Source of the DNA: an uncultured bacterium
GTDB lineage: Bacteria; Myxococcota_A; CAZTSL01
Assembly: GCA_964616915.1 (NCBI GenBank)
Contig: CAZTSL010000001.1
Location: 8,933-72,932 of the forward strand
Direction of reading: 5' to 3'
DNA: 64,000 nt
Shown: one piece after another, positions 3,837-62,175 of the stretch
Numbering within the stretch: position 1 is the stretch's first letter
Layout: each line of letters opens with the position of its first letter
The notes under the pieces: model-generated
What the model was told of the DNA's origin: nothing
Seen by the model: the letters and a program-made list of their open reading frames with translations, nothing else
Databases searched by the model: none
Position numbers and translations under genes: made by a program

Positions 3837-3863
3837 GGAGAGAACGTTTCAGATGGAGGAGGT

Positions 3864-6239: not shown

Positions 6240-7075
6240 TGCGTCCACCGTTCCTTCGGGCCGTACCGACGGAGGAGAACCCCTTCGCGCTTTCGGTCGG
6301 GGATCTCATGGCCGCGCTCCTCCTCATCTTCATCCTCCTCCTCTCGAGCACGCTGCTGCGCCTCGAAAAGGAGTTCCAGCGGAAACGGGAGGAGACCGAG
6401 GCGGTGAAGCGGGCCGCGGAGCAGATCCAGGCGATCGCACAGACCTACAAGCGGCTCAAGGAGGATCTCTACGAGGATCTCTACCGCGAGTTCGCCAAGG
6501 ATCTCGAGCGGTGGGACGCGGTGATCGACCAGAAGACGCTCTCTGTGCGCTTCCGGGAGCCGGAGGTCCTCTTCGGGGTCGGGGACGCGCGCCTCAAACC
6601 GAGGTTCAAGGAGATCCTTCGTGATTTCTTTCCCCGTTACATCGGGATCCTCCTCCAGGAGGCGTACCGCGACAATATCGAGGAGATCCGGATCGAGGGG
6701 CATACCTCGAGCGAGTGGAACCGCCATGTCTCCTCCGATCTCGCCTACATCTACAACATGCGCCTCTCCCAGGATCGAACCCGCAGCGTCCTCTCCTTCT
6801 GCCTCGACCTCCTCTCCGGCGCGCGACGGGAATGGGCGAGAAGCAAGATCACGGCCAACGGCCTCTCCTTCAGCAAACGGATCCTCCGGGATGGCGTGGA
6901 GGACAAGAAGGCCTCCCGCCGGGTCGAGTTCCGGGTGCGCACCGACGCGGAACGGCAAATCGGCGAGATCCTGGGGATCGGTTTCCCCTCGGGAAAGACC
7001 CACGGCATCCCCCCTGGCCGCGGGGGGGGAGAGGGCCAGCGCGGGAATGCCGAAACGAGGAGAACGCAACCTTGA
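6239..7075 (+). CDS. zorB: Zorya protein ZorB (MotB-like TM anchor plus OmpA-like peptidoglycan-binding domain)
   Basis: 278 aa. It has an N-terminal TM helice (LMAALLLIFILLLSSTLL) and a conserved Asp in the plug region (SVGDLMA). The OmpA-like core carries IRIEGHTSSEW ... NMRLSQDRTRSVLSF (GHTD..G / N..LS..RA..V signature). It is translationally coupled to zorA. Confidence 0.8.
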   Translation: MRPPFLRAVPTEENPFALSVGDLMAALLLIFILLLSSTLLRLEKEFQRKREETEAVKRAAEQIQAIAQTYKRLKEDLYEDLYREFAKDLERWDAVIDQKTLSVRFREPEVLFGVGDARLKPRFKEILRDFFPRYIGILLQEAYRDNIEEIRIEGHTSSEWNRHVSSDLAYIYNMRLSQDRTRSVLSFCLDLLSGARREWARSKITANGLSFSKRILRDGVEDKKASRRVEFRVRTDAERQIGEILGIGFPSGKTHGIPPGRGGGEGQRGNAETRRTQP

Positions 7076-8529: not shown

Positions 8530-8552
8530 GGGGGAGAGAGGAGTCCATCGGA

Positions 8553-23684: not shown

Positions 23685-24407
23685 GTGCTAGACCAGATCA
23701 GAAAATTGGTCCATCTCCAGAAGATCGATCAGCATCTCGGTGAGCTGCTGCGCCGCCGGGAGAATGCCTCCCGCAAGGTGAGCGATGCCGAAGGCTCCTT
23801 GCAGCACGAACAGGAGAAACAGACCGAGTGGAAAGAGCGCCTCTCCGTGCGGAAGAATGAAGAGGAACAGACGCGGGAACAGATCCGGGATGTCGAGTCC
23901 CAACTCGCGAAACTCGAAGCGAAACAGCAGGAAGTCAAGACGACGAAGGAATATGACGCCGTACGGAAGGAGTTCGAAAGCGCAGAGCAGACGAAACAGA
24001 CCCTTGAAGCGGGGATCACGGCGATCAGCGCGGAGATCGTCGAACTCGAGACGAATCTGCGGGAGAGCGAGAGCCGGGTCGCATCCCTGAAGACGACCCT
24101 CGAAAGGGTGAAAAACGAACTCGCCCACGTCCTGGAGAGCGTCGGTGAGGAAGAAAAGGAACTCCAGGAGAAGCGTGACGAACTCGCCGGAACGATCAAG
24201 GCTCCCCTCCTCAGGAAGTATGAAAGGATCCGGAAATACAAGATGGGGTTGGGCATCGCAGAGGCCAAGGACGGCGCCTGCACCGCCTGCCACATGAGCG
24301 TCCCCTCACAGCAGTACTCGAGGATCCTGCGTGGGGAGCTGCTCGAGTGCCAGAATTGCCAGCGGATCCTCTACCATGAAACGATTCTGGAACAGAATGC
24401 ATCCAAA

Positions 24408-24410
<3 letters not shown>
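23685..24410 (+). CDS. C4-type zinc-ribbon domain protein (DUF164/COG1579 family; coiled-coil plus C-terminal Zn ribbon)
   Basis: 241 aa. A long coiled coil is followed by CTAC....CQNC. Confidence 0.75.
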
Positions 24411-24815
<405 letters not shown>

Positions 24816-24957: not shown

Positions 24958-25473
24958 TCATTCCTCTTCGGTGATCACTTCTCCCCAGATGTTCTCGATC
25001 CGAACGATCTCCCATTCGTGCGTTCGATCCCTCCATTGGACATCGACGATCTCGCCGCAGGGCTGGCCGAGGAGGGCCTGGGCGATGGGGGAATGGAAGG
25101 AGATCCCATTGGGGCAGGCTTCCATCTCGAGGATGTCGGCGAGCGAGATGAGAAAGGATCTCTCCATCTCCGTTTCGCAATCGATCACCGTCACGGTGGA
25201 GAAGAGCGTCACGCGGTCCCGCGGGAAGGTTTCCAGGTCGATCCTGTTGACCATCTCGAATTTCTCGTAGAGTTGGCGTAAGCGTCCTTGAAGGAAACTC
25301 TGGCGTTGTTTGGCCGCATCGTATTCGGCGTTTTCGCTCAGGTCGCCATGTTCGGCCGCGGTGTGGAGCGCCTTGGGGATCTCGACATGGAGTTCGTACT
25401 CCATCTTCTCGATATCCTCCCGGAGTTTTCGCCGGACGGCTTCGAGCTTCTGTTTGATCTCCTCCATCTTCAT
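24958..25473 (-). CDS. greA: Transcription elongation factor GreA
   Basis: 171 aa. The N-terminal coiled coil carries the conserved acidic tip (HGDLSENAEYDAAK) and a C-terminal FKBP-like domain. Confidence 0.9.
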   Translation of the reverse strand: MKMEEIKQKLEAVRRKLREDIEKMEYELHVEIPKALHTAAEHGDLSENAEYDAAKQRQSFLQGRLRQLYEKFEMVNRIDLETFPRDRVTLFSTVTVIDCETEMERSFLISLADILEMEACPNGISFHSPIAQALLGQPCGEIVDVQWRDRTHEWEIVRIENIWGEVITEEE

Positions 25474-32541: not shown

Positions 32542-32966
32542 GCGACCTTCTCCTCGCCGAATCGGACCCTTTCCGCTGACCGCCGTTGCAGCGCCTCCTG
32601 CCCTCCATCCCCCTCTCCCTTCGCCCTCCGCGCGAAACGGTAGTCCCCACTTTACATCGTGTCATGGGAAATAGACGTTGAATATCTGAGATCCTCCTCA
32701 GATTCCTGAGCCCCCCCCGGACGGCTCCACGATCCGCAGGCGTTGCCATGGTGACCCGATTCCTGGGGATGTTTGGCACCGTTATTGCGTTTCCCCCCCT
32801 TCCAAAACTTTCCCGGCAACGTTTTTTCCGGTCGGGGCACTCTACGAGGAAGGAGGACCGGAAACGCGGGATCGCGCTTCCCCCCTTCGACATTCCCACC
32901 GGAGATGCCGGGCCTTTCGTGTGATCTCACTTCGCGTCGTTCACGAACGCATCTCAAGGTGGTACA

Positions 32967-33647
32967 ATGTCGCAAGAGACGAAGACTTGGAGTGATGGGG
33001 AACGCACCTATACGATCGAGGAGATCGCCACGCTCGTGGCCGCCGTCAAGGAGAACCGGCAGAATCTCGAAGCCGTGACTGCGCTCTATCAGAGCTTTGT
33101 CCACGAGATCTACCGTTTCTTCCGTAACCGGGTCTACTCGGTCGCCGATGTTCACGATCTTACGAGTGAAACCTTCGTCATCATGCTCCGGAATATCGAC
33201 AAACTCGAGCAGAATCAGAGCTTCCACAGTTGGCTCTTCGGAATCGCGCTCAACCTGCTCCGGAAGTACTACAAGCGAAAGAAGCGGGAGATCGAGGAGA
33301 TCTCCGACGAAGGGAACAGCGATTTCCAGCGTTATCTCGCGCAAACGACGCCGCCGCCCCCGATGCCGGACATCATCGTGGACCGAAAGCACTTGCGGAT
33401 CTACCTCGGAGAACTCATGTCGAAGATGAAGCAGGAACAGCAGATGGTGCTCTATCTGCGCTTCTACGAGGAGATGCGCATCCGCGAGATCGCCGAGATC
33501 ATGCAGAAGTCGGAAGAGGCGATCAAGTCTCTCCTCTTCCGCTCCCAGAAGAAACTCCACAAACTCCTCCTCAAGAAATTCCGCACGGGATTGCGGAATC
33601 CCGCGGAATACTACGCGGAGATCCTCAGATCCTTCGCGGACGCATGA
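32967..33647 (+). CDS. RNA polymerase sigma-70 factor, ECF subfamily
   Basis: 226 aa. The sigma-2 region (ETFVIMLRNIDKL...FHSWLFGIALNLLRKYY) and sigma-4 HTH (MRIREIAEIMQKSEEAIKSLLFRSQKKL) are both present. Its GC content is visibly lower than that of its neighbours. Confidence 0.85.
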   Translation: MSQETKTWSDGERTYTIEEIATLVAAVKENRQNLEAVTALYQSFVHEIYRFFRNRVYSVADVHDLTSETFVIMLRNIDKLEQNQSFHSWLFGIALNLLRKYYKRKKREIEEISDEGNSDFQRYLAQTTPPPPMPDIIVDRKHLRIYLGELMSKMKQEQQMVLYLRFYEEMRIREIAEIMQKSEEAIKSLLFRSQKKLHKLLLKKFRTGLRNPAEYYAEILRSFADA

Positions 33648-47042: not shown

Positions 47043-47969
47043 TCAAGATGCCTCACTCGTTTGCGGGGGAAGGCCACCGATCTCGACCCGGTTCCTCCCG
47101 CCTCCCTTGGCGCGGTAGAGGGCTTCGTCCGCCCGTTGGATCAGCTCGTCCCGTTTGGAGATCCCTTCGTCGTATGCGGCGATGCCGATGCTGCAGGTGA
47201 CGTGGAAGGGGGATTCGTCGTCGGCGTAGAAGGTGAGACGGGCGATCGCCTCGCGGAGGCGCTCCGCAGCGATCTTCGCCTCCGAGAGGGTGGTATTCGG
47301 CATGCAGACACAGAACTCCTCCCCGCCGAACCGACCCGCCAGGTCGCTGCGACGCAGTGTCCCTTGGATCACCTCGCCCACCCTTCGGAGGACCTCGTCC
47401 CCGGCGAGGTGGCCATGGTGGTCGTTGACCTTCTTGAAGAAATCGATGTCGAGGAGGAGAAGCGCGAGTTGGAAGCGGTGGCGCCTGGCCCGGACGATCT
47501 CCTGCTCCAGGCAGTTCATGAAGGTCCGGCGGTTCATCAACTCGGTGAGGGGATCGTAGGCGGCCAGATGCTGCAACTGCTCATGGGTCCGCTTGAGGGT
47601 GAGCTGCGTGCGGATGCGGGCCAGGGCCACGGAGAACGCCACCGGCTTCGTGATGTAGTCGTTGGCACCCAGCTCGAGTGCCTGGACGATGTCCGCGCTC
47701 TTGACCTGGCCGGTGACCATGATGACCGGCAGGGTGAAGGGATCATGCGTCTCCCGAATGCGGGTGAGGAGTTCGAGGCCGGAAAGATCGGGCATCACGA
47801 CATCGAGGAGGAGAAGATCGAACTCGTGGCTCGCCAGCAAGGCAAGCGCTTCCTCCCCCCTCGCCGCCGTGGTGACCTCGTAGCCGCGTCGCTTCAGGCG
47901 CCGCAGGAGGATCTCGCGGTTTCCGGGATCGTCGTCCACGATCAGGATCCGTCCACTCGTCTCTTCCAT
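47043..47969 (-). CDS. Response regulator with GGDEF (diguanylate cyclase) output domain, PleD/WspR-like
   Basis: The internal start MEETSGRILIVDDD gives a canonical REC domain (D...DLLLLDVVMP...KP). The GGDEF domain has an intact GGEEF motif and no obvious inhibitory RxxD site. Confidence 0.85.
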   Translation of the reverse strand: MEETSGRILIVDDDPGNREILLRRLKRRGYEVTTAARGEEALALLASHEFDLLLLDVVMPDLSGLELLTRIRETHDPFTLPVIMVTGQVKSADIVQALELGANDYITKPVAFSVALARIRTQLTLKRTHEQLQHLAAYDPLTELMNRRTFMNCLEQEIVRARRHRFQLALLLLDIDFFKKVNDHHGHLAGDEVLRRVGEVIQGTLRRSDLAGRFGGEEFCVCMPNTTLSEAKIAAERLREAIARLTFYADDESPFHVTCSIGIAAYDEGISKRDELIQRADEALYRAKGGGRNRVEIGGLPPQTSEAS

Positions 47970-48009
47970 GGCACCTGTCTCCCCTCGAGCCGAATCGCCC
48001 GCTTCCTCG

Positions 48010-49293
48010 CTATCTCCTCCGGAACCACCGGAGAAACCAGGGTGATTTCTTCTTTGGCCCTTCATGCTTTTCCAGGGATTCGATCGCATACCGGAACTCG
48101 GTCATGTCGCGATAGCGATTCTCCTTTTTCCGTTCGATCGCTTTGAGGATCACGGCATCGACCTCGGCGCCGAGGGACGCTTCATGGAGCGAGGGAGGGG
48201 ACGGGTGGCTCGTGAGCGCCTCCCGGATGCAGTTCTCTTCCGTTCCGAAGGGGAACGTTCCCGTCAACACGTAGTAGAAACTCACCCCCAACGAGTAGAT
48301 GTCGGAACGGAAGTCGAGAGGAGCCCGGTACAACTGCTCCGGTGACATGAAGAGGGGGGTTCCGAAGCCCTTGGGCTCCCCCGTGATATCGAGATCCGCA
48401 TTGTCGAGCGGCTTGGAGATCCCGAAATCGACGAGCTTGACTCCCCCCGTCTCGGTCACGATGATGTTCTGCGGCTTGATGTCGCGATGGATGATCCCCC
48501 GCAGATGCACAGCCTCGAGCGCCTCGCAGAGCGCCTTCATGATGGGCAACGCTCGCGGGAGGGGGAGCGGACCCCGACGCCGTACGATCTGCCGAAGCGT
48601 CTTGCCCCGGACGAACTCCATCGTAAAATAGGGGTATTCCTGGAAGACCCCGTAATCGAAGATCCGGATGACGTTGGGATGGTTGACCTGGCGCGCAAGC
48701 GCGATCTCCCGTTTGAAGCGGGCGACCGTCTCCTCCCGGTCGGGATCGTTCGGATCGACGTCGAGGATCTTGATCGCGAGGTCCTCCGCGAAGAGTTCGA
48801 GATCCCGGGCACGGTACACCACGGCCGTTCCCCCCTTGCCGAGGGGTTCGACGACTTCGTAGCGTCCGGCGATCCGGATACCGGCATCGAGACGAAAGAT
48901 GTCGAGGAAGCGGTCGCTCCGGCGACTGGGGTGGCGGGCTTCCTGGGTGATCTCCCCCGAGCCCTCCTCCTCCTCGGCCATCGGATTCACCCGGGGATGC
49001 GTGGTCTCCCCATCCCCTTGCAGGGGGATGGACGCTTCCTGTCCACTCCCCTCTTCCTTCCCCCCTTTCGGTGCATCCCCGATTTCGGGCCTGCGCCTTC
49101 CCTCCTCCCCCCCCTTTTCCTGGACGAGCGCAATGAGCGCGGCCGCTTTCTGGCCGTAGAGGGTATGTCGCTGCGGATCGAGCCGGAGTACCGCTCCCCA
49201 TTGCTTCATCGCCTCGGCATAGCGGGCCGCCTTCATCGATTTCAGCCCCTCCCGGAAATGATGGCGCAGACGGGCTTCGCTCTTCTCATCCAT
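48010..49293 (-). CDS. Serine/threonine protein kinase with N-terminal TPR-like/acidic region
   Basis: A Hanks kinase domain occupies the C-terminal 270 aa (GKGGTAVVYRA, AIK, HRDIKPQNIIV, DFG, SPE). Confidence 0.8.
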   Translation of the reverse strand: MDEKSEARLRHHFREGLKSMKAARYAEAMKQWGAVLRLDPQRHTLYGQKAAALIALVQEKGGEEGRRRPEIGDAPKGGKEEGSGQEASIPLQGDGETTHPRVNPMAEEEEGSGEITQEARHPSRRSDRFLDIFRLDAGIRIAGRYEVVEPLGKGGTAVVYRARDLELFAEDLAIKILDVDPNDPDREETVARFKREIALARQVNHPNVIRIFDYGVFQEYPYFTMEFVRGKTLRQIVRRRGPLPLPRALPIMKALCEALEAVHLRGIIHRDIKPQNIIVTETGGVKLVDFGISKPLDNADLDITGEPKGFGTPLFMSPEQLYRAPLDFRSDIYSLGVSFYYVLTGTFPFGTEENCIREALTSHPSPPSLHEASLGAEVDAVILKAIERKKENRYRDMTEFRYAIESLEKHEGPKKKSPWFLRWFRRR

Positions 49294-49446
49294 CCCCGAT
49301 CTTCCTGGTTCCTCGTTTCCGATCTTCTATCAAATCGCCTCGCATTATGCAAGCATCGTGTGATCGTGAGCAAAGGGAGACTTGACTTTCTGAGGACGTC
49401 GGGTATCCTATCGGTCGGATGGTTGGACCACCCGACCATCGAACCA

Positions 49447-50142
49447 ATGGAGGCGAAGGCGTTGTTTTCGGCGATCAAGAAGATGCGGGCTTCGGACCAG
49501 ATTCTCGAGAAGATCCGGCAGACGATCCTGAGCGGGAAGTTCGGGGTGGAGGAGCGGTTGCCCTCGGAGCGGGAGCTGGCGGAGCAGTTCGGGGTGAACC
49601 GGGGGACGGTGCGGGAGGCGCTCAAGATCCTGGAGGAGTCGGGGCTCGTGAAGGTGCAGCAGGGGGGGGGAGCGCGGGTGACCGATTTCTGGCGGTGGGG
49701 AGGGCTCGATCTGCTCCCCTACCTCGTCTTCCGGCATGGGGAGATCGATCTCGAACTCCTCGGGGAGATCCTCGAAGCGCGGCGCTTCTTCTGCACGCAG
49801 ATCGCGCGGCTGGCCGCGACTCGTCGGACGCAGGAGGATCTCGACCGGCTCTCGGCGTTGTATCGGGCGACCCTGGCCGCCGGAGAGGATCGTGACGAGA
49901 TCCAGCGGCTCGATTTCGAGTTCTTCTACGCGCTTTCCCGCGCGGCCGGAAACCGGGTCTTCCTCCTCGTGATGAACGCGATTCGTCGGGTCTACTTCCT
50001 CCACCGGGAGGCGTTTCGCCCCCTCTATGAAACGCCGCAGCGGGTTGCCACGGCCCAGGAAGCGATCGTTCAGGCCCTGCAAGGGCAGGACCCTGCTGCC
50101 GCGGCGGCCGCGGTGGAACGCTACATGGCCGTAACGGGATGA
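49447..50142 (+). CDS. GntR-family transcriptional regulator (FadR/FCD subfamily)
   Basis: Start MEAKALF at 49447. It has a winged-HTH (LPSERELAEQFGVNRGTVREALKILEESGLV) and an FCD-type C-terminal domain. The 5' extension of ORF 48487 is rejected. Confidence 0.8.
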   Translation: MEAKALFSAIKKMRASDQILEKIRQTILSGKFGVEERLPSERELAEQFGVNRGTVREALKILEESGLVKVQQGGGARVTDFWRWGGLDLLPYLVFRHGEIDLELLGEILEARRFFCTQIARLAATRRTQEDLDRLSALYRATLAAGEDRDEIQRLDFEFFYALSRAAGNRVFLLVMNAIRRVYFLHREAFRPLYETPQRVATAQEAIVQALQGQDPAAAAAAVERYMAVTG

Positions 50143-51915: not shown

Positions 51916-52596
51916 TCAGAGGGTGGAAGAAAGCCCAAGAAGGGGGCGAAGCGCGCGAAGGTCGGTGACCGTGGCGTCCGCGCCGCTCAGCTCCTCGGCG
52001 GAACCGTAGCCGTAGAGGCACCCCACACAGCGGAGGCCGTGATGGCGGGCCGCAGCGATATCGAAGCCTCGATCCCCGACGAGGACGACCTCCCGGGCAA
52101 CCACGGGGGAGAGCCGCGCCAGCGCCAGCGCCACGAGATCGATCTTCGAGCCCCCTTCGATGTCGCCGATGCAGTGGACCGTGTCGAAAAAGTCACCGAT
52201 GCGCAACGTCTCGAGGACGGCTTCGAGGTAGGGACGACCGCAGTTCGTGACGAGTCCGAGTGCGATGCCAGCCGAGCAAAGATCGGACAATAGTTCCCGA
52301 ACACCGGTAAAGAGCCTGCAACATCCCGCCGCCATCAATGCCCGCTCTTCTTCGACGACGAACGCCCGCACGAGGGATGCCGCCGCGGCGAATTCCTCCG
52401 GAACGAGTCCCCGGAAGTAATCGGGGGAAGGGGCGCCAATGAGGGAAAGGATCCGTTGCGGGGAGGGAATCCGGGGGGGGAGCCCCCTGGCGGCAAAGAA
52501 ACGACGCACGCCCGCCTGGGCCGACCGGACCGCCAATTCCCGCGAATCGACGAGGGTGCCGTCCATGTCGAAGAGCACGGCTGCAATCCGTTCCAT
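51916..52596 (-). CDS. HAD-superfamily hydrolase (phosphoglycolate-phosphatase-like)
   Basis: Internal start MERIAAVLFDMDGTLVDS (HAD motif I DxDGT) after GGAGG. Motif III/IV GDRGFDIAAARHHG is present. The 119-codon upstream extension of ORF 52953 is rejected. Confidence 0.8.
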   Translation of the reverse strand: MERIAAVLFDMDGTLVDSRELAVRSAQAGVRRFFAARGLPPRIPSPQRILSLIGAPSPDYFRGLVPEEFAAAASLVRAFVVEEERALMAAGCCRLFTGVRELLSDLCSAGIALGLVTNCGRPYLEAVLETLRIGDFFDTVHCIGDIEGGSKIDLVALALARLSPVVAREVVLVGDRGFDIAAARHHGLRCVGCLYGYGSAEELSGADATVTDLRALRPLLGLSSTL

Positions 52597-52697
52597 CCTC
52601 CGTTCCTCCCCCGGTCTTCCCGATCGACGACGATCCGATGGAAGGCTCTCCGGCGTCTCTCCCTGGCCTCTCGGGGAACCGCCCGATCGGCGCCGCC

Positions 52698-55600
52698 TCA
52701 CTTCAGGCCATATCGGTCGAGCTTCTCGTAGAGCGTCCGCCGGCCGATCCCGAGCAATTTTGCGGCACGGACCTTGTTGCCGGCGACCTCCTCGAGGATC
52801 TGTTCGATCACGCGCTTTTCGTAACGCTCCACGATCTCCTTGAGGGGTTTGGGCTGGTGAAGGGGGAAAGCGAGGGGATCCTCCTCCCGGACCGGCCGGG
52901 TGCCGGCGCGAATGGCCGGAGAGATATCCTCGATCGTGACCCGGCCATCGCACAGGACGACGATCCGCTCGATCTCATGCTCGAGTTCCCGCACGTTGCC
53001 CGGCCAGTCGTAGGCAAGGAGGAGGCGGCGCGCCGCCGGATCGATCTCGATCTTCTTGCCCGGCATCTTCTGGCGCTTGCGTTCGAGAAAATGTTCGATG
53101 AGGAGCGGGATGTCCTCCCGTCGCTCCCGCAGGGGGGGAAGCTCGATCGTGACGACATCGAGACGGTAGAAAAGATCCTCGCGAAAACGCCCCTCCTCGA
53201 TGAGCCTGCGGAGGTTTCGGTTCGTGGCGGAGATGAGGCGCACATCGACCCGGATGAGATCCTTCCCCCCCACCCGCCGGAAGGCCTGTTCCTCGATGAC
53301 GCGAAGGAGCTTGGCCTGCATGTTGAGGCTCATGTCGCCGATCTCGTCGAGGAAGATCGTCCCCCGGTGCGCAAGCTCGAAGAGGCCCCGCTTCTCCCGG
53401 ACCGCGCCGGTGAAGGCCCCCTTGACATGGCCGAAGAGCGCGGCCTCGAGCAGGGTCTCGGGGATGGCTGCGCAGTTCTCGCTCACGAAGGGGTGGGCCT
53501 TGCGAGGACCGTTGAAGTGGATCGCACGGGCCACCAGATCCTTCCCCGTCCCCGATTCCCCCTGGATGAGCACCGGCACCTCGCTCTCCACGACCCGGTC
53601 GAGCAACTGGAAGACACGCTGCATCGCGTCGCTTCGGCCGATGATGTTCGCGTAGTTGTACTTCGTCTCCATGTCGGCACGGTTGCGCTGGAGGAGTTCC
53701 GTGACGACCTCGAGCTGCTCGCTCTGGCGTTCGAGCCGGTCCTCCAGGGAACGGTTGAGTTCCTCGATCCGCCGGTAGGAACGTTCCAACTCCCGCTGCT
53801 TGGCGATGTTCTCCTCGATGAGTCGGGCCTTCTCGATGGCAATGGCCGCCTGGTCACCGAAGGCGTGGAGCAACTCGAGGTCCTGCGGCGTGAAGGAGCC
53901 CCCCTGGAAGCGGTTGTCGAGGTAGATCGTACCGATCGTGGCCCCAGAGACCTTGAGGGGAACGCAGAGGATCGAGCGGAGCTTGAGGTCGTGCACGCTG
54001 AGGTACCCGGCGAAGCGTTCGTCGTTGCGCGCATCGATGGCGATGATCGCCTCCCCTCGCTCCACGACCTCCTTGGCGATCGAATGGCTCACCTTGAACT
54101 TCGACTTGTGGATGTTCTCCCGATCGATGTTGCGGGCAACACGGACCTTCATCTCCTCCCCCTCCAGCAGGATGAGAAAGCCCCGTTCCGCATGGGTCAG
54201 TTCGATCGCCGTATCCATGATGAACTCGAGCAGGTGGGAGAGATCGTGCTGGGAGTTGAGCGATTTGTTGATCTCGAGGAGATGGCGGAGCCGTTTGTCC
54301 CCGGCGTCTTCTTGCGGGGGAACGGAAGGGGGAGGGGTGCCTTCCCCCGCCATCCTTCGGCGAAGCTCCTCCATATCCGCCAGGAGCTGGTCGTAACCTT
54401 TCATCTTCATGAAATCTCTCCGGAATTCCTGTGGGATCTGCTCGATCACCCGGCGCTGGAGTTCGACGACGGCATGGAAGTGTTCGAGCGCCGATTCGTC
54501 GTCTCCCCCCTGGAGGGCCAGACGCGCCAGGAGGAGATGAAGATCCCAGAGGAGTTCGGGACGGTCGATCTCTCTCGACCTCCGGCGGGCTGGTTCGAGG
54601 GTTTGCCAGGCGCTTGCCAGATCCCCCCCCCGCCGGAAGACCTCTCCGAGGAGGACGCGCCACTCGATCTCGAGATCGAGGCTCTCGAGTTCCGAGGCGA
54701 GATCACCGGCGATATCGAGGTAGAAGCGGGCTTCGGAGAGATCGTCGCCGGCAAGGGCCGACTCCGCCAGACGCAGATTCGTCCGGCAGAGTTCATGACG
54801 GCTCTGGAGTCTTCCGAAGAGCGCGAGGGCCCGAGTCAGGTGGGCCGCGGCTTCCCCTCGCTGCCCGGCATGGATCCCCACGGCCCCGAGGAGGAGATGG
54901 TTGTAGCCGGTGACGAGTTCCATCCGATGCCGGCAACAGAGTTCGAGGGAACGGTCGAGATACCGGCGCGCCTGCGCCAGCCGTCCCAACGTGAGGTGGA
55001 TGTTCCCCAGATTGCTCGATACCCGCAGGAGAATCTGGTCGTCCGCGATTCGTTCGGCCAGCCGAAACGCCTGCTCGTAGTAACGGATCGCCTCGCCGTA
55101 GGCACTGCGCTCATGGGCGATCGTGCCAAGGTTCATCGCATAGGTCGCGGCACCGTGAAGATCCCCCAGTTCGTGGGCGATGGCGAAGGAACCGCGGTAG
55201 GCCTCGACCGCGGCGTCGTAGCGACCACGCCGTTGCAAGAGCATCCCGAGGCTGTTGAGCATCCGGGCATGCAGATGGCGATCCCCCCTGGCATGGCGCA
55301 ACCCCTGCCGGTAGTAGGTCTCGGCCGTATCGTAGTGACCGAGATAGAAATGGGAGAGGCCCAGGACATCCTCGATACGGGGCAGAAGCCCCGTGGGGGG
55401 GGCTAGGTGAAGCGCTTCCTCCCCAGCGCGGATCGCACCGGCGTAGTCCCCCTGGAGGATCCGGATCCGTCCGAGAACCCAGAGGATGCGGCAGAGCGCC
55501 TCCTGATCGTCGCGTTTCCGGGCGTTGGCCTGCGCCGATTCGAGGATCGCCGCGGCCCGGTCGTGCTCCCCAAGACGCAACAAGGCTTCTCCCATCGAGA

Positions 55601-57872
55601 TCTCGATCCCGCAGCGAGCGGAGAGGTCGGACTCCGTTTCGAGGGCCCCCTCGAGGATCTCGAGCGCCTCCCTCGGGTTTCCACTCTTGAGGTGCGCCTC
55701 TCCCCACAGGTGACGCAGCCGGCCGGGGAGAGGGCAGCCGCTACGGTCGCAGATCTCCGCGATGTGCCGCCCGAAGTGGGCCGCCCGGGCCCACGCCCCC
55801 CCCGACAGCAACCGTTCGAGCGCGGTAATGCTCCATGCGATCCCCGCCTCGTGGCGCTGCGCAAGGAGCGCCTGTTCGGCGATCCTCTCCGGATCGTCCT
55901 CCCCTTCCCCCAGGAGGAAGGCCAGAATCCGCTGGTGGAGGAGGGGACGACGGGAAGGGGGGATTCGCTCGTAGAGGAGGGGACGAAGCCGGGGGAAGGC
56001 CAGAACGTAGCGACGCTCCTCCTCTTCGATGAGTCCCTTTTCGCGCAGGGAGACGACGTCGGCGATCGGATCCTCCCCCCCCTCTCCTTCGCGTTCGATC
56101 AGGAAGGAGAGGGGAAGGGGGCGTCGAGTCGCAGCGAGTTTCCAGAGGATTTCGATCTCTCCGGGAGCGAGGCCAAGGAGCCGCTCCTCGAGCCGTTTTG
56201 TGATCCGGGCCGGTATCGAAGCGCCCTCTTCCCCTTCGAGCGCTGCACCGTCGCAGACCCATCCCCCTTCCGTTCCATCCTGCGTTGGCGCGTACCGGAG
56301 GATCCCCCGCTCGACGAGATGGTAGACGTCTTCCTGGAGGAAGAGGGGATTCCCCCCACTACGTCGAATGATTCGGGTTCTCTCCTCCTCCGGGAGGCCG
56401 GGAAGGATCGAATCGAGCAGCGCCTTTTGCGCCGTTTCTGGGAGGGAGCCCAGTTCGATGGCCCTCACCCCTGGCCGTTGCAGGAACGCCTCGATCCATG
56501 CTTCCCCCGACTCCCGGGGGGGAAGGGTGGCGGCCAGCAGCATCCCGGAGGGAATCGAGAAATTCCGGATGAGGTAGTCCATACATTCGAGGCTCTCCCG
56601 GTCGGCTTCGTGCAAATCATCGAAGAGGACGAGTGGGGAGAGTTCCGCCATGCAGCGGGTGAAGAGCCGCAAGATCTGCTCGAAACGTTGGGCTTCGGAG
56701 ACGATCTCCCCTCCGGCAGAAAGTTCCGCATATTCGGGGAAGAGCCGAAAACTTCCATCGAGGGTGGTGAGGGGGGCGACCAGTGCCTTCAACGCCGATC
56801 GCACCGCCGGCTCGAGCATCGTCAACATCTGCCGAAGGAGGGAGCGGAAGGGGGAGAAGGGCCCGGCATCGGCACAGCGTACCGAAAAGACGAGCGCGCC
56901 CTCGATCTGAACCTCGTTCTTGAACGCCTGAAGGAGACGGCTCTTTCCGATGCCCGTCTCCCCCACGAGGAGGGTGAGGACCGGGGGGGGGCACGACGAT
57001 CCTCCCCCCCGGATCTCGGCGAGGGCCAGGCGTTCCCCCTCCCGCCCCACGAGCCGCCCCAACCCCGCCACGGGTCGATGCCTGGAACGCTGGGGAGAGA
57101 GGAGATGGACGACCTCCGTGATCCGCTGCGGTCTTCGTTCGGGATCAGGATCGAGGAGCCGACCCAGGAGCCGATCGATCTCCTCCGGAATCTCCGGGTT
57201 CTGGTGCCTTGCCGGCAGCGGGGGTCCGCCAGGGATGGGGAGGGGAGCGATATCCTCCCCCACCGGATGGGGCAAAACACCGGTATAGACCTGGTAGAGC
57301 GTGACCCCGAGCGCGTAGAGATCGGAGGCGACGCTGTTGTTGCCTCCCTTCAACACTTCGGGCGCGAGATAGGGAAAGGTCCCGGTGGCCCGTCCCTCCC
57401 CCGTGGCGCTCATATCGACGACCTTGACGAGTTCCCCCCCCCCGATGCGGGTGACGAGAATGTTTCCCGGTTTGAGATCCCCGTGGAGGAGACCGAGCGC
57501 ATGGAGATACTCGAGCGCATGACAGAGCTGAACGACGAGGGGCGTGATCCGTGAGGGATCCCGACCACGGGTCGCCGCGAAGAGATCCGCCCCTTCGATG
57601 TACTCCACCGTGAAATAGGGGCGTCCTTCGGCTCGAAGATATCCGAAGTCATATACCCGCGGGAAGTGTGGATGATTCAGGTCGGCAAGGGTTCTGAACT
57701 CGTCGAGGAAGATCGTCGAGGAGATCGTCTCCTCCCGCGGCGCGAAGACCTTCACCGCGACCCGTTCGCCGTAGAACTCGTCCCACGCCAGATAGACCCG
57801 CCCGATGCTCCCCGTACCGAGGAGCCGTTCCACCCGGTAGCGCCCGTCGATGATCGTGCCGGTTCGCGTCAC
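52698..57872 (-). CDS. Giant multidomain regulator: Ser/Thr protein kinase + AAA/NTPase + TPR repeats + GAF + sigma-54 interaction (AAA+) domain + Fis-type HTH
   Basis: 1724 aa with the following domains:
- N-terminal kinase: GTGSIGRVYLA, AVK, HGDLKPGNILV.
- P-loop: LLVGETGIGKSRLL.
- Long TPR array: many AxxYxxAL repeats.
- GAF domain: LEFIMDTAIELTHAERGFLILLEG...
- Enhancer-binding domain: Walker A GESGTGKDLVARAIH, the GAFTGA motif (HVKGAFTGA) and an arginine finger.
- C-terminal HTH: NKVRAAKLLGIGRRTLYEKL. Confidence 0.85.
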   Translation of the reverse strand: MTRTGTIIDGRYRVERLLGTGSIGRVYLAWDEFYGERVAVKVFAPREETISSTIFLDEFRTLADLNHPHFPRVYDFGYLRAEGRPYFTVEYIEGADLFAATRGRDPSRITPLVVQLCHALEYLHALGLLHGDLKPGNILVTRIGGGELVKVVDMSATGEGRATGTFPYLAPEVLKGGNNSVASDLYALGVTLYQVYTGVLPHPVGEDIAPLPIPGGPPLPARHQNPEIPEEIDRLLGRLLDPDPERRPQRITEVVHLLSPQRSRHRPVAGLGRLVGREGERLALAEIRGGGSSCPPPVLTLLVGETGIGKSRLLQAFKNEVQIEGALVFSVRCADAGPFSPFRSLLRQMLTMLEPAVRSALKALVAPLTTLDGSFRLFPEYAELSAGGEIVSEAQRFEQILRLFTRCMAELSPLVLFDDLHEADRESLECMDYLIRNFSIPSGMLLAATLPPRESGEAWIEAFLQRPGVRAIELGSLPETAQKALLDSILPGLPEEERTRIIRRSGGNPLFLQEDVYHLVERGILRYAPTQDGTEGGWVCDGAALEGEEGASIPARITKRLEERLLGLAPGEIEILWKLAATRRPLPLSFLIEREGEGGEDPIADVVSLREKGLIEEEERRYVLAFPRLRPLLYERIPPSRRPLLHQRILAFLLGEGEDDPERIAEQALLAQRHEAGIAWSITALERLLSGGAWARAAHFGRHIAEICDRSGCPLPGRLRHLWGEAHLKSGNPREALEILEGALETESDLSARCGIEISMGEALLRLGEHDRAAAILESAQANARKRDDQEALCRILWVLGRIRILQGDYAGAIRAGEEALHLAPPTGLLPRIEDVLGLSHFYLGHYDTAETYYRQGLRHARGDRHLHARMLNSLGMLLQRRGRYDAAVEAYRGSFAIAHELGDLHGAATYAMNLGTIAHERSAYGEAIRYYEQAFRLAERIADDQILLRVSSNLGNIHLTLGRLAQARRYLDRSLELCCRHRMELVTGYNHLLLGAVGIHAGQRGEAAAHLTRALALFGRLQSRHELCRTNLRLAESALAGDDLSEARFYLDIAGDLASELESLDLEIEWRVLLGEVFRRGGDLASAWQTLEPARRRSREIDRPELLWDLHLLLARLALQGGDDESALEHFHAVVELQRRVIEQIPQEFRRDFMKMKGYDQLLADMEELRRRMAGEGTPPPSVPPQEDAGDKRLRHLLEINKSLNSQHDLSHLLEFIMDTAIELTHAERGFLILLEGEEMKVRVARNIDRENIHKSKFKVSHSIAKEVVERGEAIIAIDARNDERFAGYLSVHDLKLRSILCVPLKVSGATIGTIYLDNRFQGGSFTPQDLELLHAFGDQAAIAIEKARLIEENIAKQRELERSYRRIEELNRSLEDRLERQSEQLEVVTELLQRNRADMETKYNYANIIGRSDAMQRVFQLLDRVVESEVPVLIQGESGTGKDLVARAIHFNGPRKAHPFVSENCAAIPETLLEAALFGHVKGAFTGAVREKRGLFELAHRGTIFLDEIGDMSLNMQAKLLRVIEEQAFRRVGGKDLIRVDVRLISATNRNLRRLIEEGRFREDLFYRLDVVTIELPPLRERREDIPLLIEHFLERKRQKMPGKKIEIDPAARRLLLAYDWPGNVRELEHEIERIVVLCDGRVTIEDISPAIRAGTRPVREEDPLAFPLHQPKPLKEIVERYEKRVIEQILEEVAGNKVRAAKLLGIGRRTLYEKLDRYGLK

Positions 57873-58226
57873 CTGTTCGCTCCACCCTTTCCCCCGAATT
57901 TTACCAAATTTCCCCCGCCGTTACAATTTGAAAGGGAGCGGTCGTCGAGAAAATGACACAACGGATGGATCCCGTTTCCCCTCCGATCTCTCGATCCCCC
58001 GCTACGTCGCTCTTTTCGGGGAGAACCCCCTTTCCATCCGGGGGAGCCCACCCGCTGGCATACCCTCTGCAACGGCAAGGGGGGAGGTTCTGCGCTTCCG
58101 GTGGGAAAGGCCATCCCTTTCTCCCGGAAGCGGGCAGTGGTACGAACCTCGATCGATGCACGTTCGATCCGCCGGAAATGCCGTGCATCGTCGCTTGGAG
58201 AAGATGCATTCCGGCCCTTGGGAAGG

Positions 58227-59432
58227 ATGAGTCTGATGAACGAGAAAAGTGAACGACACGAAACGACCGATGAATCGGCCGTCCCCCCCCGCGACCCGAC
58301 CTTCGTCCCCCCCTCGAAACAGCGCCGCACGGAGGTTTCGGAGGAAGATCTCCTCGATCGGCTCGTCGATACCCAGGAACTCACGGAGACGCTCAAGGCG
58401 CAGGCACTCGCCCGTCTCCTCGAAACGGACGGGATCATCGAATCGACCGCTCCGCCATCCGGAGAAGGGGAGGACTCGAAGCGGGAGCGCACAGACCATG
58501 CCCAGAGCCGCGCCGAAGCGCTCGAACGGATCGCGGCCCAGCTTGCGGAAGCCCAGGGGGGCACCTGCGACGACGAGAAGGCCCGGCGACGAAGCACTTC
58601 TCCCCCCCCCCAAGGGGGAAAGGGGCAGGAGGTCGCTTCTCCTGCGCAACCCTCGAGCGTACCCCCGAAGGGAAGAGCGGCCGCACGGGCGCGGATCCTT
58701 CAGCGCTCCGCATACCGGCATCCCCCCGGAAGCCCGAAACGGGAATGGGTCTCCCCTTATCAGGCCTTCCGGAAGCGACGCGAGGCTGCGAAACGCGAGG
58801 CTGCGAAACGCGAGGCCGCGCTTCGTCGGCAGCGGCGGGAGGGAGAAGCGGAGCGGACCTTCGAGACGTGGCACCGCAACGACCTCCTCCTCCTCTTCTC
58901 CCTCCTCTTTGCCTGGCGCTTCTTTGCCACGCTCTGGAGCGGGGATGCCGGTTATACCGATTCGACCCTCCTGCACCTGATCGATCTCTGCTCCGGCACG
59001 CTGCTGCTCCTCCTCCTGCACCCCACCCTGATCGGGAAAGCGGGGCGTGTAGGATCGGTGATCCTTGCCGGGAGTGCATCCTTCGTCGTCGCGGTCTTCC
59101 TCTTCTCCTTCCTCTCGCTCTCTCCCACCCTCTTCGATACTCTTCCCCGCAAATACCAGGAGATCACGACGGGTCTGAGGGGTCTTTCGCTCCTTCCCCC
59201 CCTCATCGTGTTCTTCGGGAAGTACATCTTCATTGCCGCGGTCACCCTCACCTTCGCCGAACGCCGCCGCAACCGGGAAGTCGAAGAGAACCGGCGTCGC
59301 AAGGTGGCATACGATACCTCCTGGGGGAACGTGACGCAGGGGGAGAAACACCATACATGGAGGGAGACGGCGTCGTCTCACCGGAAACCCCACCCGATCG
59401 TTCTCCAGCCCACGAATTGCGCGACACGATGA
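58227..59432 (+). CDS. Hypothetical membrane protein (charged/low-complexity N-terminal half, five TM segments in C-terminal half)
   Basis: ORF 58101..59432. The likely start is the internal ATG (MSLMNEK) at about 58227. It contains a tandem REAAK repeat and the C-terminal hydrophobic helices LLLFSLLFAWRFF and VILAGSASFVVAVFLFSFLSL. No recognisable domain. The start is uncertain. Confidence 0.4.
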   Translation: MSLMNEKSERHETTDESAVPPRDPTFVPPSKQRRTEVSEEDLLDRLVDTQELTETLKAQALARLLETDGIIESTAPPSGEGEDSKRERTDHAQSRAEALERIAAQLAEAQGGTCDDEKARRRSTSPPPQGGKGQEVASPAQPSSVPPKGRAAARARILQRSAYRHPPGSPKREWVSPYQAFRKRREAAKREAAKREAALRRQRREGEAERTFETWHRNDLLLLFSLLFAWRFFATLWSGDAGYTDSTLLHLIDLCSGTLLLLLLHPTLIGKAGRVGSVILAGSASFVVAVFLFSFLSLSPTLFDTLPRKYQEITTGLRGLSLLPPLIVFFGKYIFIAAVTLTFAERRRNREVEENRRRKVAYDTSWGNVTQGEKHHTWRETASSHRKPHPIVLQPTNCATR

Positions 59433-59626
59433 CGCCGAAACTCCGTGACATCCGGAATCCATGAAGACGGGATCCCCGATATCCCCGGGAAATGAGATAC
59501 GATTCCCCTGATTCCCCCTTGCAATCCCCCTGCGCTTGGGGCATAATTTCCTCATTCAAGGTGGGACTTCTGCTGCATCGGTCGGGAGGTACCGATCGTG
59601 TGCTGGAAGATGTGAGGAGAACGGGG

Positions 59627-60241
59627 ATGAAACAGAAGGCGATCGTCTGGCTTTGCTGTCTCTTGGGTGTGTGGGTACTCCTTGCACCCGGCTGTCCGAC
59701 CGACCCGATTCCGAACGGGGATTTCGAGAGCGGCGCCCTCGATCCGTGGACTTCCCGTGGGGTCAACGGGGGATTCGCGCAAATCGTGGAGGAGGGGACC
59801 CAGTGGTCTGCGAATCCGACGCAGAACATCACCTTCGAGAACCCGATCTATGCGGCGAATGTTCGTTCGTCCGGGCCTGCGCCGACGAATTCGGTCGGGA
59901 TCCTCACCTCTCCCGCCTTTACGGTCGCATTCCCGGCGGTGACCTTCATCGCGCTCTCCGAGACGACGGGAAACCGGCCGAATCCGGTGACCCTGACCTA
60001 CCGGATCCTCAACGCAACCGATGGAAGCGTCCTCTTCACGTCGGAGCAGGTGGCCACCGCGATCGTCAACCTCGATACTGCGGTCGATGCGCCGGAGGGG
60101 TGGAGCCATCACTGTATCGATCTCACCCGTTTCGCGGGGTTGTCGGTCCAGCTCGAGTTTCAGCAGCACACGAACGTAGCCGGCAATGGATATTTTACGC
60201 TCATCGATGACGTGAACGAATCACCGGCCCCATGTCCGTGA
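59627..60241 (+). CDS. Hypothetical secreted lipoprotein
   Basis: ATG at 59627 after GAGGAGAACGGGG. It has a signal peptide with a lipobox (VLLAPGC) and a beta-rich secreted domain. It overlaps the downstream gene by 10 nt. Confidence 0.55.
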   Translation: MKQKAIVWLCCLLGVWVLLAPGCPTDPIPNGDFESGALDPWTSRGVNGGFAQIVEEGTQWSANPTQNITFENPIYAANVRSSGPAPTNSVGILTSPAFTVAFPAVTFIALSETTGNRPNPVTLTYRILNATDGSVLFTSEQVATAIVNLDTAVDAPEGWSHHCIDLTRFAGLSVQLEFQQHTNVAGNGYFTLIDDVNESPAPCP

Positions 60242-62175
60242 GGGATCACTTTCGGGGGGAGGCGCCGTTGTGGCGGTGGGTCCTCCTCCTCTCGATCGTG
60301 GGGGGGGCCGGCTGGCTCTACAGCCAGCCGCTGGGCAGCTACGACGTCTGGTGGCACATGGCCGCTGCCCGCCAAATCCTCGAGACGGGGCATTTCCCCC
60401 GGCGGGATACCTTTTCCTTCACGATCGAGGGGATCCCCTGGTACGACTTCCAGTGGCTCTCCCAGATGATCTTCCTCGGTGTGTACCGCCTGGGGGGGGT
60501 AGCGGGACTCGTGTGGGCACGAATCCTTCTTCTCACGGGCACCCTCGTTTTGCTCTACCTGGCGGCGAGGGTGCGCGGCGCCTCCCGGATCGTGGCGATG
60601 AGCCTCCTGCCCATCGGCGCGGCGGGTCTCTTCACCCGTTTCAACCTGGGGCCTGAGCATCTCTTCTTTCTGGCGCTGGCCACGCTCTCCCTCCTGAGAG
60701 GGATGCAGCGGAGGGGGCGGGCATGGGTGCGATGGGGACTCATCCCGGTCCATCTGCTGATCGCCAATCTCCACGGGGGCATGACGCTCGTGAGCCTGGC
60801 GATGATCGGGATCTATCTTGCGACGGATGCATTCGAAGGGTACCGGCGGGGGGAGGTGCGCAGAGAATGGCTCGATCGGAATGCCTGGCTCCTGGGGGGG
60901 GTGGTGCTCGTAACCTTCTTCACCCCGCTCGGAACCGATATCGTGGCCGTCTTCCGTGATGCATTCACCTATGACAACACGCGGGTGCTCAACACGGATT
61001 GGCTCCCGCTGCGGCGTTCCGATTTCGGAGACGTGGCACGGGGATTCGGCTATTGGGCTTTCGGTCTCCTTGCCCTCCTTACGCCCCTTGCCCTCCTCGC
61101 GCGGGGACGGCGGATCTTCCTCGACGATCTCCTCCTCTACCTCCTCTTCCTCCTTCTCGCCTTCGAACGGCGCCGGGTCGTGGCACAGTTCGTGATCGTT
61201 TCGCTCCCGATCTGTGCGGGGGCGATCGGGGCGTGGATGGCAGCACGCAAGGAGGAGAAGCCAGGGCGGGGGAAGGGGAAGGCGCACAGGATTTCGGCTG
61301 CCTCGGCGTTTCTCCCCCTCCTCCTTCCGCTGTCGAGTGCAGCGATCTTCCTCTTCCCCCACGCGGGCAGGGCGACGCTGGGGCGAAGGTTCGAGCTGGT
61401 CCACCCCGGATTTCCGGTCGGAGCCACCCGATGGATCAAGGAGCACCGGCCCGTCGGAAACCCCTGGCATCCCTATCACTTCGGCGGTTATCTCATCTGG
61501 CACCTCTACCCCGACTACCGGGTGCTCATCGATGGACGGGATCATCCCTACCAGAAGACGGGGGTGGCCCGACACGTGATCGAGGCGATCACGGACCGGG
61601 AGAAGTTCGACCGCCTCGTGGAGAGTTACGGGATCACTTTCGCGATCGTGCCGAACACCGGCAACTGGATCGAACTCCATCAGACCGCCGAGCCGCTGGC
61701 CTTCTTCACGAAGGAGCGCTGGGCGCTCGTCTTCCACGACGACGACGCCTCCATCTTCCTCAAGCGGACGCCCGAACACCGCAAGCTGATCGAACGCTTC
61801 GAGTATCACCTCATTCGCCCGCAGTACGTCGTGCGGTACGTCGATCTGCTCCAGGATCCCTTCGTCAACGGTTCTTCGGCCTTTCTGCGGGAGACGGACC
61901 GTCTCCTCTCCGAATCTCCCGGAATGAGTGAGGCCAACCTCCTGCGGGGTCGTTACTTCGAGACGCACGCCGGTGCCGATTATTCTTCGATCGTGGAGGC
62001 GTGCTACCGGCAGGCGATCGAGGATCTCCCCTGGAGTTTGACGGGGTATTATCTCCTCTTCGACTTCTACTTCAACAGGGGACGCCGGAAGGAGGCGTGT
62101 GAACTCTATGCAGCGGCGCGCCGGAGGGTCTATTACAAACCGGGGCTTGCGCCGATGGCGGCGCGCTGCCGCTAG
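60232..62175 (+). CDS. Large polytopic membrane protein (GT-C-fold glycosyltransferase-like / DUF), with soluble C-terminal domain
   Basis: 647 aa with 12 or more TM helices in the N-terminal 400 aa, including a periplasmic-loop motif region (WWHMAAARQILETGHFPRRDTFSFT...IPWYDFQWL). It is operonic with the lipoprotein gene. The function is not assignable by eye. Confidence 0.5.
   Translation: MSVRDHFRGEAPLWRWVLLLSIVGGAGWLYSQPLGSYDVWWHMAAARQILETGHFPRRDTFSFTIEGIPWYDFQWLSQMIFLGVYRLGGVAGLVWARILLLTGTLVLLYLAARVRGASRIVAMSLLPIGAAGLFTRFNLGPEHLFFLALATLSLLRGMQRRGRAWVRWGLIPVHLLIANLHGGMTLVSLAMIGIYLATDAFEGYRRGEVRREWLDRNAWLLGGVVLVTFFTPLGTDIVAVFRDAFTYDNTRVLNTDWLPLRRSDFGDVARGFGYWAFGLLALLTPLALLARGRRIFLDDLLLYLLFLLLAFERRRVVAQFVIVSLPICAGAIGAWMAARKEEKPGRGKGKAHRISAASAFLPLLLPLSSAAIFLFPHAGRATLGRRFELVHPGFPVGATRWIKEHRPVGNPWHPYHFGGYLIWHLYPDYRVLIDGRDHPYQKTGVARHVIEAITDREKFDRLVESYGITFAIVPNTGNWIELHQTAEPLAFFTKERWALVFHDDDASIFLKRTPEHRKLIERFEYHLIRPQYVVRYVDLLQDPFVNGSSAFLRETDRLLSESPGMSEANLLRGRYFETHAGADYSSIVEACYRQAIEDLPWSLTGYYLLFDFYFNRGRRKEACELYAAARRRVYYKPGLAPMAARCR

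Follow-up and report, generated by a model that had tools for sequence, protein, structure and literature searches.

The window analysed here is a stretch of 64,000 nucleotides (contig CAZTSL010000001.1 of assembly GCA_964616915.1) from an uncultured bacterium of the Myxococcota_A lineage, and the gene in question, which we call the activator gene, occupies positions 52698-57872 on its reverse strand. It begins with a GTG codon and encodes a protein of 1724 residues that carries, in this order, a Hanks-type protein kinase, a STAND NTPase with a TPR sensor array, a GAF domain, a sigma-54 interaction AAA+ domain and a Fis-type helix-turn-helix (HTH) DNA-binding domain. An initial annotation of this DNA had proposed such a fusion of kinase, NTPase, TPR, GAF, sigma-54 AAA+ and HTH domains on a single polypeptide. 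This was borne out by the motifs in the translation and by a Pfam scan, which found all of Pkinase, TPR, GAF, Sigma54_activat and HTH_8 and placed seven modules in order along the protein, every one of them above its curated cut-off.

The activator gene is a real, intact single gene and not an assembly artefact. Its open reading frame (ORF; the coordinates include the stop codon) is 5175 nt long, with 1724 codons and zero internal stops, and the GC fractions at its three codon positions (0.71/0.43/0.79) match those of real genes in this window of 63% GC. The start codon call (MTRTG...) agrees with the one made by the annotators of an earlier, fragmentary assembly from this organism, and the exact protein with this M start is recorded in the public protein collection, where a fragment stands as the representative of its 90% cluster. 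The initial annotation had raised the worry that a frameshift or assembly error might have turned two genes into one; instead the frame proved to be uninterrupted, and about 50 database clusters have the same order of domains, so we conclude that the fusion is neither a frameshift product nor a chimera. An artefact in which at least two genes were fused by a frameshift or by chimeric assembly could appeal to the splitting of the locus over at least three short contigs in the fragmentary assembly, and to the fact that residues 1100-1480, i.e. the TPR-GAF-AAA+ junction, are covered by no independent fragment. However, residues 1-101, 70-1099 and 1480-1724, which lie on separate short contigs in that assembly (P0244, P0245 and P0242), are identical to the matching parts of the activator. 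Because one fragment spans residues 70-1099, the join between the kinase, the nucleotide-binding oligomerisation domain (NOD) and the TPR array is independently confirmed, and the TPR-GAF-AAA+ join is supported because homologues, in about 50 independent clusters from other organisms, carry the same order through the junction. Given also the uniform codon statistics of the long open frame, we regard an artefact as extremely improbable.

Judged from its sequence, the C-terminal third of the activator is a complete GAF-AAA+-HTH enhancer-binding protein (EBP). The GAF domain (residues 1209-1347; 53832..54248, reverse strand, as for all parts of this gene; Pfam GAF_2 4.9e-18, GAF 4.2e-17) is followed by a linker predicted to be helical and coiled-coil-like (residues 1348-1409; 53646..53831), by the sigma-54 interaction AAA+ domain with its lid (residues 1410-1660; 52893..53645; Sigma54_activat 2.3e-73, AAA_lid_14 3.7e-24) and by the Fis-type HTH_8 domain (residues 1681-1721; 52710..52832; 3.2e-14). 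Sigma54_activat (PF00158) spans residues 1410-1577 and is matched over the full profile (1-168/168), AAA_lid_14 spans residues 1582-1660, and the EBP motifs GESGTGK, GAFTGA (residues 1485-1490), FLDEIG and REDLFYRL (residues 1564-1571, with the arginine finger) are present. The best PDB match of the AAA+ part was NifA (9QQ6, 2.3e-86), then ZraR, FleQ and NtrC1, and the best NCBIfam match was also NifA, with 382.9 bits over residues 1193-1650. Assignment of the protein to the NifA equivalog (TIGR01817) was nevertheless rejected, as this score is below the cut-off of 528.85, there are no nif genes among the genes of the window, and the NifA-type upstream activating sequence (UAS) TGT-N10-ACA was found in neither of the regions upstream of the neighbouring genes 1 and 2 described below. 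No NCBIfam model reached its cut-off with either the whole protein or its N-terminal 1200 residues.

The first ~1175 residues are PknK-like in architecture. Behind the kinase (residues 12-254; 57111..57839) lies a STAND NOD (AAA_16, residues 273-438; 56559..57056; Pfam 8.5e-19), then a STAND helical, winged-helix and arm region (residues ~439-641; 55950..56558, with approximate boundaries), and then a TPR sensor array of ~13 helical hairpins (residues ~642-1174; 54351..55949). Pfam matches to TPR_12, TPR_2 and TPR_MalT cover residues ~720-1035 of this array (TPR_MalT 1.1e-20). We modeled residues 255-1200 with AlphaFold2 using 38 homologues (mean pLDDT 86.7), and the model contains an alpha/beta NTPase domain, helical and winged-helix segments, and ~13 TPR-like hairpins that extend to residue ~1174 (helices 388-920 of the model). 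In a Foldseek comparison the best PDB match of this region was 6MFV, the STAND protein PH0952 with its TPR sensor (E 2e-14, 766 aligned columns), and it was the alignment to 6MFV, together with the secondary structure of the model, that gave the limits of the arm region and supported the assignment of the NOD; Avs3 was also among the top matches. Both Walker A (GETGIGKS) and Walker B (LVLFDD, i.e. hhhhDD) are intact, and with these canonical motifs kept the STAND NTPase of the window protein looks functional. In PH0952 and MalT, contacts of the arm and the sensor hold the NOD closed in its ADP form until an inducer frees it, leading to ATP-dependent multimerisation and activation of the effector (PMC6468293). 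The same paper links this STAND activation model to 'MalT family activators and serine-threonine kinases' (PMC6468293).

Homologues were sought among 5.8 billion proteins. About 50 clusters have Pkinase and Sigma54_activat in the same order as the activator, most of them also with AAA_16, TPR, GAF and HTH_8, and P0005, P0011, P0013 and P0026 are colinear with it along 99-100% of its length (29-33% identity). Identities within the family clusters are 29-48%, and outside the same metagenome-assembled genome (MAG) and a sister MAG, D6812 (GCA_003694145.1), which we used for comparison, none is closer than ~38%. The names under which the relatives are deposited include 'PknK', 'sigma 54-interacting transcriptional regulator' and 'transcriptional regulator with GAF, ATPase, and Fis domain/serine/threonine protein kinase'. 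The architecture is already catalogued in dozens of public genomes; the window protein adds a divergent member to the family and is not new in kind. Those members of the fusion family that have a named source belong to Deltaproteobacteria, Myxococcales, Polyangium spumosum, Acidobacteriota and Gemmatimonadales; the window's own Rho protein shares 80-86% identity with its counterparts in MAGs labelled Myxococcota, Myxococcales, Thermodesulfobacteriota and Deltaproteobacteria. The arrangement had been described as seen mainly in Myxococcota-type developmental regulators. It does occur in Myxococcales, but 'mainly' is too narrow, with Acidobacteriota and Gemmatimonadales also represented, and nothing ties the family to development; we know of no member that is a developmental regulator. 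A search of the accessible literature found no paper describing a Pkinase-Sigma54_activat fusion and no experimental study of one. Papers on the genome and the kinome of Sorangium cellulosum reportedly mention fusions of kinases to sigma-54 activators.

The family is modular. The same Pkinase-AAA_16-TPR N-terminus is also found on HisKA/HATPase, GGDEF, adenylate cyclase, and STAS plus metallo-beta-lactamase outputs, and because the cassette occurs with several outputs the STAND-TPR part would be expected to control whichever output is attached at the C-terminus. There are also kinase-less STAND-TPR-EBP proteins among the relatives, and the composition of the family suggests that the kinase is an accessory element and not an obligatory input. 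A scan of a contig collection returned neither the protein itself or a close match nor a relative with the full architecture, the two matches L004 and L011 being to the EBP part only. In the same collection we checked 11 kinase-bearing loci, whose kinase-TPR ORFs are 489-943 aa long, none of them with GAFTGA.

The kinase domain scores 113.3 bits against PF00069, for which the cut-off is 31.7 (Pkinase 1.7e-32), and matches PknA, StkP and PknB in the PDB at ~1e-31. Its translation contains GTGSIG, VAVK (K41), E58, HGDLKPGN (D132, N137), D153 and APE. It is a non-RD kinase, with HGD (residues 130-132) in place of HRD; DFG is changed to DMS (residues 153-155), and no other family member has so short an activation loop. 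Among the kinase-bearing matches HGD is present in 36 of the 46 kinases fused to an EBP and HRD in one, whereas the kinase-STAND relatives without an EBP mostly have HRD (27/43, against 12/43 with HGD), i.e. in these alignments HGD is a hallmark of the EBP-fused subgroup. Taken together, DMS for DFG, HGD for HRD and the shortened loop could be the marks of a degenerate kinase, a pseudokinase or nucleotide-binding scaffold, in which case the protein would be a sigma-54 activator controlled purely by its STAND and GAF domains. We consider this unlikely, as the phosphotransfer residues K41, E58, D132, K134, N137 and D153 are all present and are kept in 44-49 of the 50 family members, and as three other members also have D-x-S in the family alignment. 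From these residues the kinase is predicted to be catalytically plausible, and a pseudokinase is less likely than an active kinase.

The initial annotation described the kinase as a Ser/Thr phospho-signalling input wired to the sigma-54 output. The kinase domain is there, but the position of the domain does not bear out the input role, because the kinase lacks any receptor or membrane segment and precedes the STAND NOD-TPR part in the chain. It may instead be an output or an internal gate, because in characterised STAND proteins sensing falls to the TPR array and the terminal domain acts as effector (PMC6468293). Were the kinase a true upstream input, it would be auto- or trans-phosphorylated, Ser/Thr marks in the linker, GAF or AAA+ domain would be the main sigma-54 switch, and the STAND-TPR part would serve only as a scaffold or partner surface. 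The intact catalytic residues would allow this, PknK phosphorylates transcription factors and thereby alters their DNA binding (PMC9045387), and the tie between the HGD subtype and the EBP output suggests co-adaptation of kinase and activator. On the other hand, no sensor precedes the kinase, the window protein has a fully intact STAND P-loop and Walker B, and kinase-less STAND-TPR-EBP relatives exist (P0033, P0054, P0055, P0057, P0058 and P0062), so the STAND-TPR part alone can run an EBP. Furthermore, activation-loop phosphorylation is generally not the switch of non-RD kinases; the non-RD type would fit activation through proximity within an oligomer and not through another kinase further upstream. 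We therefore think it improbable, more so than not by a good way, that the kinase is the upstream input.

As the initial annotation had stated, the activator gene is divergent from a forward-strand cluster of membrane and lipoprotein-like genes, three in number, at 58227-62175. Gene 1 (58227..59432) encodes an orphan membrane protein with a hydrophilic N-terminus of ~250 aa and ~4 transmembrane segments; it was matched only by the sister MAG among 1.84 billion representatives, and it is the best candidate target of the activator. We scanned the whole window for the sigma-54 consensus TGGCAC-N5-TTGCA, allowing up to two mismatches, and estimated the chance of a match by Markov simulation. The scan gave 14 sites where 6.3 were expected, and 9 of them keep GG-N10-GC. 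In both intergenic regions that the initial annotation had singled out for -24/-12 promoters, 57873-58226 and 59433-59626, one of these nine lies on the correct strand. The first, TGGCATACCCTCTGCA (58056..58071, forward strand), keeps GG-N10-GC and lies 155 nt before gene 1, and is a candidate target promoter; the second, TGGGACTTCTGCTGCA (59562..59577, forward strand), lies 50 nt before gene 2 and is doubtful. The probability of such a match by chance is 0.008 for the element at 58056 (in a region of 354 nt), 0.004 for that at 59562 and ~3e-5 for both.

Comparison with the sister MAG separated the two elements. The element at 58056-58071 is identical there and lies inside an invariant block of 29 nt, in an intergenic region between the activator and gene 1 that is 94% identical overall (coding regions, 90-94%). 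The element at 59562 has lost the GC of its -12 part and its spacing in the sister MAG, where a 27-nt insertion is present, and we rejected it as a conserved promoter; a sigma-70-like promoter before gene 2 (TTGCAA-17-CATAAT; 59519..59547, forward strand) is kept, with both hexamers invariant. The earlier suggestion that the divergent cluster comprises the targets of the activator therefore holds in part. For gene 1 it is supported by the promoter element, to which identity in the sister MAG adds little weight, and gene 1 is a plausible sigma-54 target on this evidence; genes 2 and 3, with the 59562 element lost, the sigma-70-like promoter kept and another upstream neighbour in the sister MAG, are probably sigma-70-driven. 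A divergent pair of EBP gene and target is a classical layout, for example PspF and pspA. The activator gene itself appears to be driven from the shared intergenic region by a sigma-70-like promoter, TTGTAA-17-TAAAAT with a TG (57898..57926, reverse strand), which is a consensus match only, ~26 nt before the GTG, in a block conserved in the sister MAG. Gene 1 has a long, structured 5' leader (58084..58226, forward strand) with a hairpin at 58093-58132 (fold z = -3.3), near-invariant in the sister MAG; no Rfam family was found in the intergenic regions, this leader included, and the leader may act as a regulatory RNA or be bound by a protein.

The initial annotation had also suggested looking for upstream enhancer repeats, and here none was retained. 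The candidate ACGGGATCC occurs ~90-97 nt before both of the -24 GG dinucleotides, and was rejected because its copy at 57962-57975 lies in the sole intergenic patch that is poorly conserved in the sister MAG; by our estimate one or two shared 10-mers of this kind are expected by chance. The C-rich repeats TTTCCCCCG (57888, 57909) and GATTCCCC (59501, 59510) were rejected as binding sites as well, their enrichment being modest, their density similar at 37350 and their copies altered in the sister MAG.

We also looked at seven homologous loci. None of them shares neighbouring genes with the window, and the genes beside the homologous activators are unconserved and mostly without Pfam domains. 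In three of the seven, the intergenic region beside the activator contains a GG-N10-GC site in the correct orientation (L001 13347, L002 14274 and L018 13064), the L001 site being 26 nt before the next gene; L003 has a fourth site, at a distance of three genes. Given the overall site density, we estimate that ~0.28 adjacent sites would be expected in seven loci (Poisson P ~0.003), i.e. family members tend to adjoin a sigma-54-type promoter. Elsewhere in the window, the best match to the sigma-54 consensus, TGGCACCGTTATTGCG, with one mismatch (32774-32789, forward strand), is intergenic and lies 178 nt before an ECF sigma-factor gene (32967-33647); its position suggests a cascade from sigma-54 to the ECF factor and, indirectly, that sigma-54 is in use in this organism.

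We interpret the activator as a cytoplasmic one-component regulator in which a PknK/MalT-type STAND module is joined to a NifA-type enhancer-binding module, with STAND-driven activation of gene 1. In the resting state the STAND core would be closed in its ADP form and the protein would be monomeric. Binding of a ligand by the TPR array would open the NOD, allowing ADP to be exchanged for ATP and the protein to multimerise. The multimer would concentrate the tethered GAF-AAA+-HTH modules, so that a sigma-54 AAA+ ring could form on the DNA at a UAS within 57873-58055, while the GAF domain, like those of NifA and NorR, would provide a second brake that responds to small molecules. The ring would then remodel E-sigma54 at 58056-58071 and turn on the divergent gene 1 (58227-59432). 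The non-RD kinase would fire by induced proximity within the oligomer and phosphorylate its own chain, thereby gating or timing the response from within, and/or further substrates, in the way that PknK acts on transcription factors in trans. As a whole we hold this interpretation with slightly better than even confidence; the identification of the domains within it is near certain, and the mechanism has about an even chance of being right.

Several observations weigh against this interpretation. We infer all of the oligomerisation, ligand, phosphorylation and DNA-binding steps. The combination of DMS for DFG with a very short activation loop could mean that kinase activity is weak or absent. 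The Walker A Lys of the STAND domain is replaced by Arg (GxxGxGRS) in about half of the family, from which the window protein differs in its canonical Walker A; because of this substitution, NTP hydrolysis would not be needed universally by the STAND module. At the DNA level, a divergence of ~6% makes perfect conservation of a 16-nt element expected ~37% of the time, no UAS was found for the activator (ACGGGATCC being unconserved and TGT-N10-ACA absent), four of the seven homologous loci have no adjacent sigma-54-like site at the stringency used, and rpoN is not among the genes of the 64-kb window.

A different function that has to be weighed is that of an anti-phage or conflict STAND system of the Avs type, as opposed to a housekeeping regulator. 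STAND and TPR parts with an N-terminal enzymatic effector are the Avs layout, Avs3 is among the fold matches as described above, the PADLOC kinase models PD-T4-6 and mad6 match the kinase domain, and a Zorya system lies within the same window. However, the PADLOC matches are at the level of domains only (RtcR-type AAA-HTH, and PD-T4-6/mad6) and none covers the STAND-TPR part, the C-terminal output is a complete transcription activator beside a sigma-54-type promoter, and the Zorya system is 41 kb distant. A role in anti-phage defence is therefore very unlikely.

The interpretation as a STAND-controlled sigma-54 activator is best seen against the known systems from which its parts are familiar. 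PknK of Mycobacterium tuberculosis (Rv3080c) is a multidomain STAND-family kinase that, like the window protein, has an N-terminal soluble Hanks kinase, an AAA_16 NOD and a MalT-type TPR part, and it acts on transcription factors, phosphorylating the regulators VirS, PrrA and MtrA (PMC9045387). The likeness is one of architecture, and PknK lacks the GAF, sigma-54 AAA+ and HTH domains, its transcription-factor substrates being separate proteins. The NOD-arm-TPR core is that of MalT and PH0952, in which inducer-driven multimerisation gathers DNA-binding effectors (PMC6468293, PMC4381067). The effector of MalT, however, is a LuxR-type HTH that works on sigma-70 promoters, whereas that of the window protein is a second oligomerising ATPase, and there is in addition an N-terminal kinase. 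The C-terminal 530 residues have the same GAF-AAA+-HTH order as NifA, NorR and FhlA, and repression of the AAA+ domain by the GAF domain is a paradigm in EBPs of this type (PMC2941729); the window protein differs from them by ~1200 extra N-terminal residues. The NCBIfam models for AfsR and AfsK gave weak partial matches to the window protein. In AfsK/AfsR of Streptomyces and in the Pkn-to-FHA-EBP cascades of Myxococcus a Hanks kinase acts on a transcription activator that is a separate protein (AfsR being a SARP-STAND-TPR protein), i.e. two proteins are involved, and either the output is of the sigma-70 type or the coupling goes through an FHA domain. The window protein, in contrast, is a single chain without an FHA domain.

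A more far-reaching proposal, which we put forward tentatively and expect to be wrong somewhat more readily than right, is that the family represents an uncharacterised class of one-component regulators, in which ligand-induced STAND multimerisation would nucleate the enhancer-binding hexamer and a co-evolved HGD kinase would mark the chain in cis, thereby gating or timing transcription. If this were true, the fusion would be a 'Rosetta-stone' from which AAA+ transcription activators could be read as targets of PknK-type STAND kinases. In Deltaproteobacteria and Myxococcota-like bacteria the route from Hanks kinases to sigma-54 transcription is known mostly from multi-protein cascades, and a protein with both on one chain is a compact system in which to ask whether STAND oligomerisation drives an EBP ring, what the non-RD kinase does and how two ATPase switches are combined; the adjacent candidate promoter could be used directly as a reporter. 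For the present the system has limited practical value, with an uncultured MAG as the source, an orphan membrane protein as the candidate target and an architecture that is already auto-annotated in dozens of genomes.

The remaining two genes of the divergent cluster overlap by 10 nt. Gene 2 (59627..60241, forward strand) encodes a secreted or lipoprotein-like protein with a signal peptide and a weakly CBM_4_9-like N-terminus; whether it is a lipoprotein is uncertain from its sequence, the lipobox-like LAPGC being atypical with Pro at -2. Gene 3 (60232..62175, forward strand) encodes a polytopic membrane glycosyltransferase of the GT-C fold with C-terminal TPR-like helices, as seen from an AlphaFold2 model (pLDDT 83.5) whose Foldseek matches are STT3, AglB, PglB, AftA, ArnT and DPY19 (E 7e-8 to 2e-4, TM-scores ~0.4-0.54). 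It has no Pfam match; D38, in its first external loop, is invariant in 22 homologues. GT-C-like genes are also found near two of the homologous loci (TMEM260_N in L020 and PMT_2 in L003), with no sequence similarity to gene 3. In the sister MAG (L021 1-1380, compared with 59433-59626 of the window) the operon of genes 2 and 3 is preceded by a peptidase_S8 gene and not by gene 1; either synteny is broken here between the two genomes, whose identity is ~90%, or the contig of 4.2 kb was wrongly joined. On the other side of the activator gene, 98 nt downstream and on the same strand, lies a gene for a HAD-family hydrolase (51916..52599, reverse strand). No terminator-like site was found in the gap, and the HAD gene is possibly co-transcribed with the activator gene; the arrangement is not conserved in the homologous loci.

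Other parts of the window touch on signalling and defence. The Zorya system mentioned above is a type I Zorya-like anti-phage operon (3615-11720, forward strand) consisting of ZorA (3615-6239; PADLOC ZorA1 1.2e-34), a ZorB-like OmpA-domain protein (6239-7075), ZorC with EH_Signature (~6715-8529) and ZorD with SNF2 and Mrr domains (8403-11720; PADLOC ZorD1 1023 bits). A CT398-like coiled-coil/zinc-ribbon protein is encoded beside an RNase P RNA and a GreA-like factor (23685-24410 and 24433-24809, forward strand; 24958-25473, reverse strand); the CT398 protein of Chlamydia is said to bind RpoN. The window also encodes a second Hanks-type kinase, of 815 aa with C-terminal PEGA domains (25519-27966, reverse strand), a response-regulator diguanylate cyclase (REC-GGDEF; 47043-48089, reverse strand) and a GntR/FCD regulator of 551 aa (48487-50142, forward strand), which has an N-terminal extension of ~330 residues without a Pfam match.

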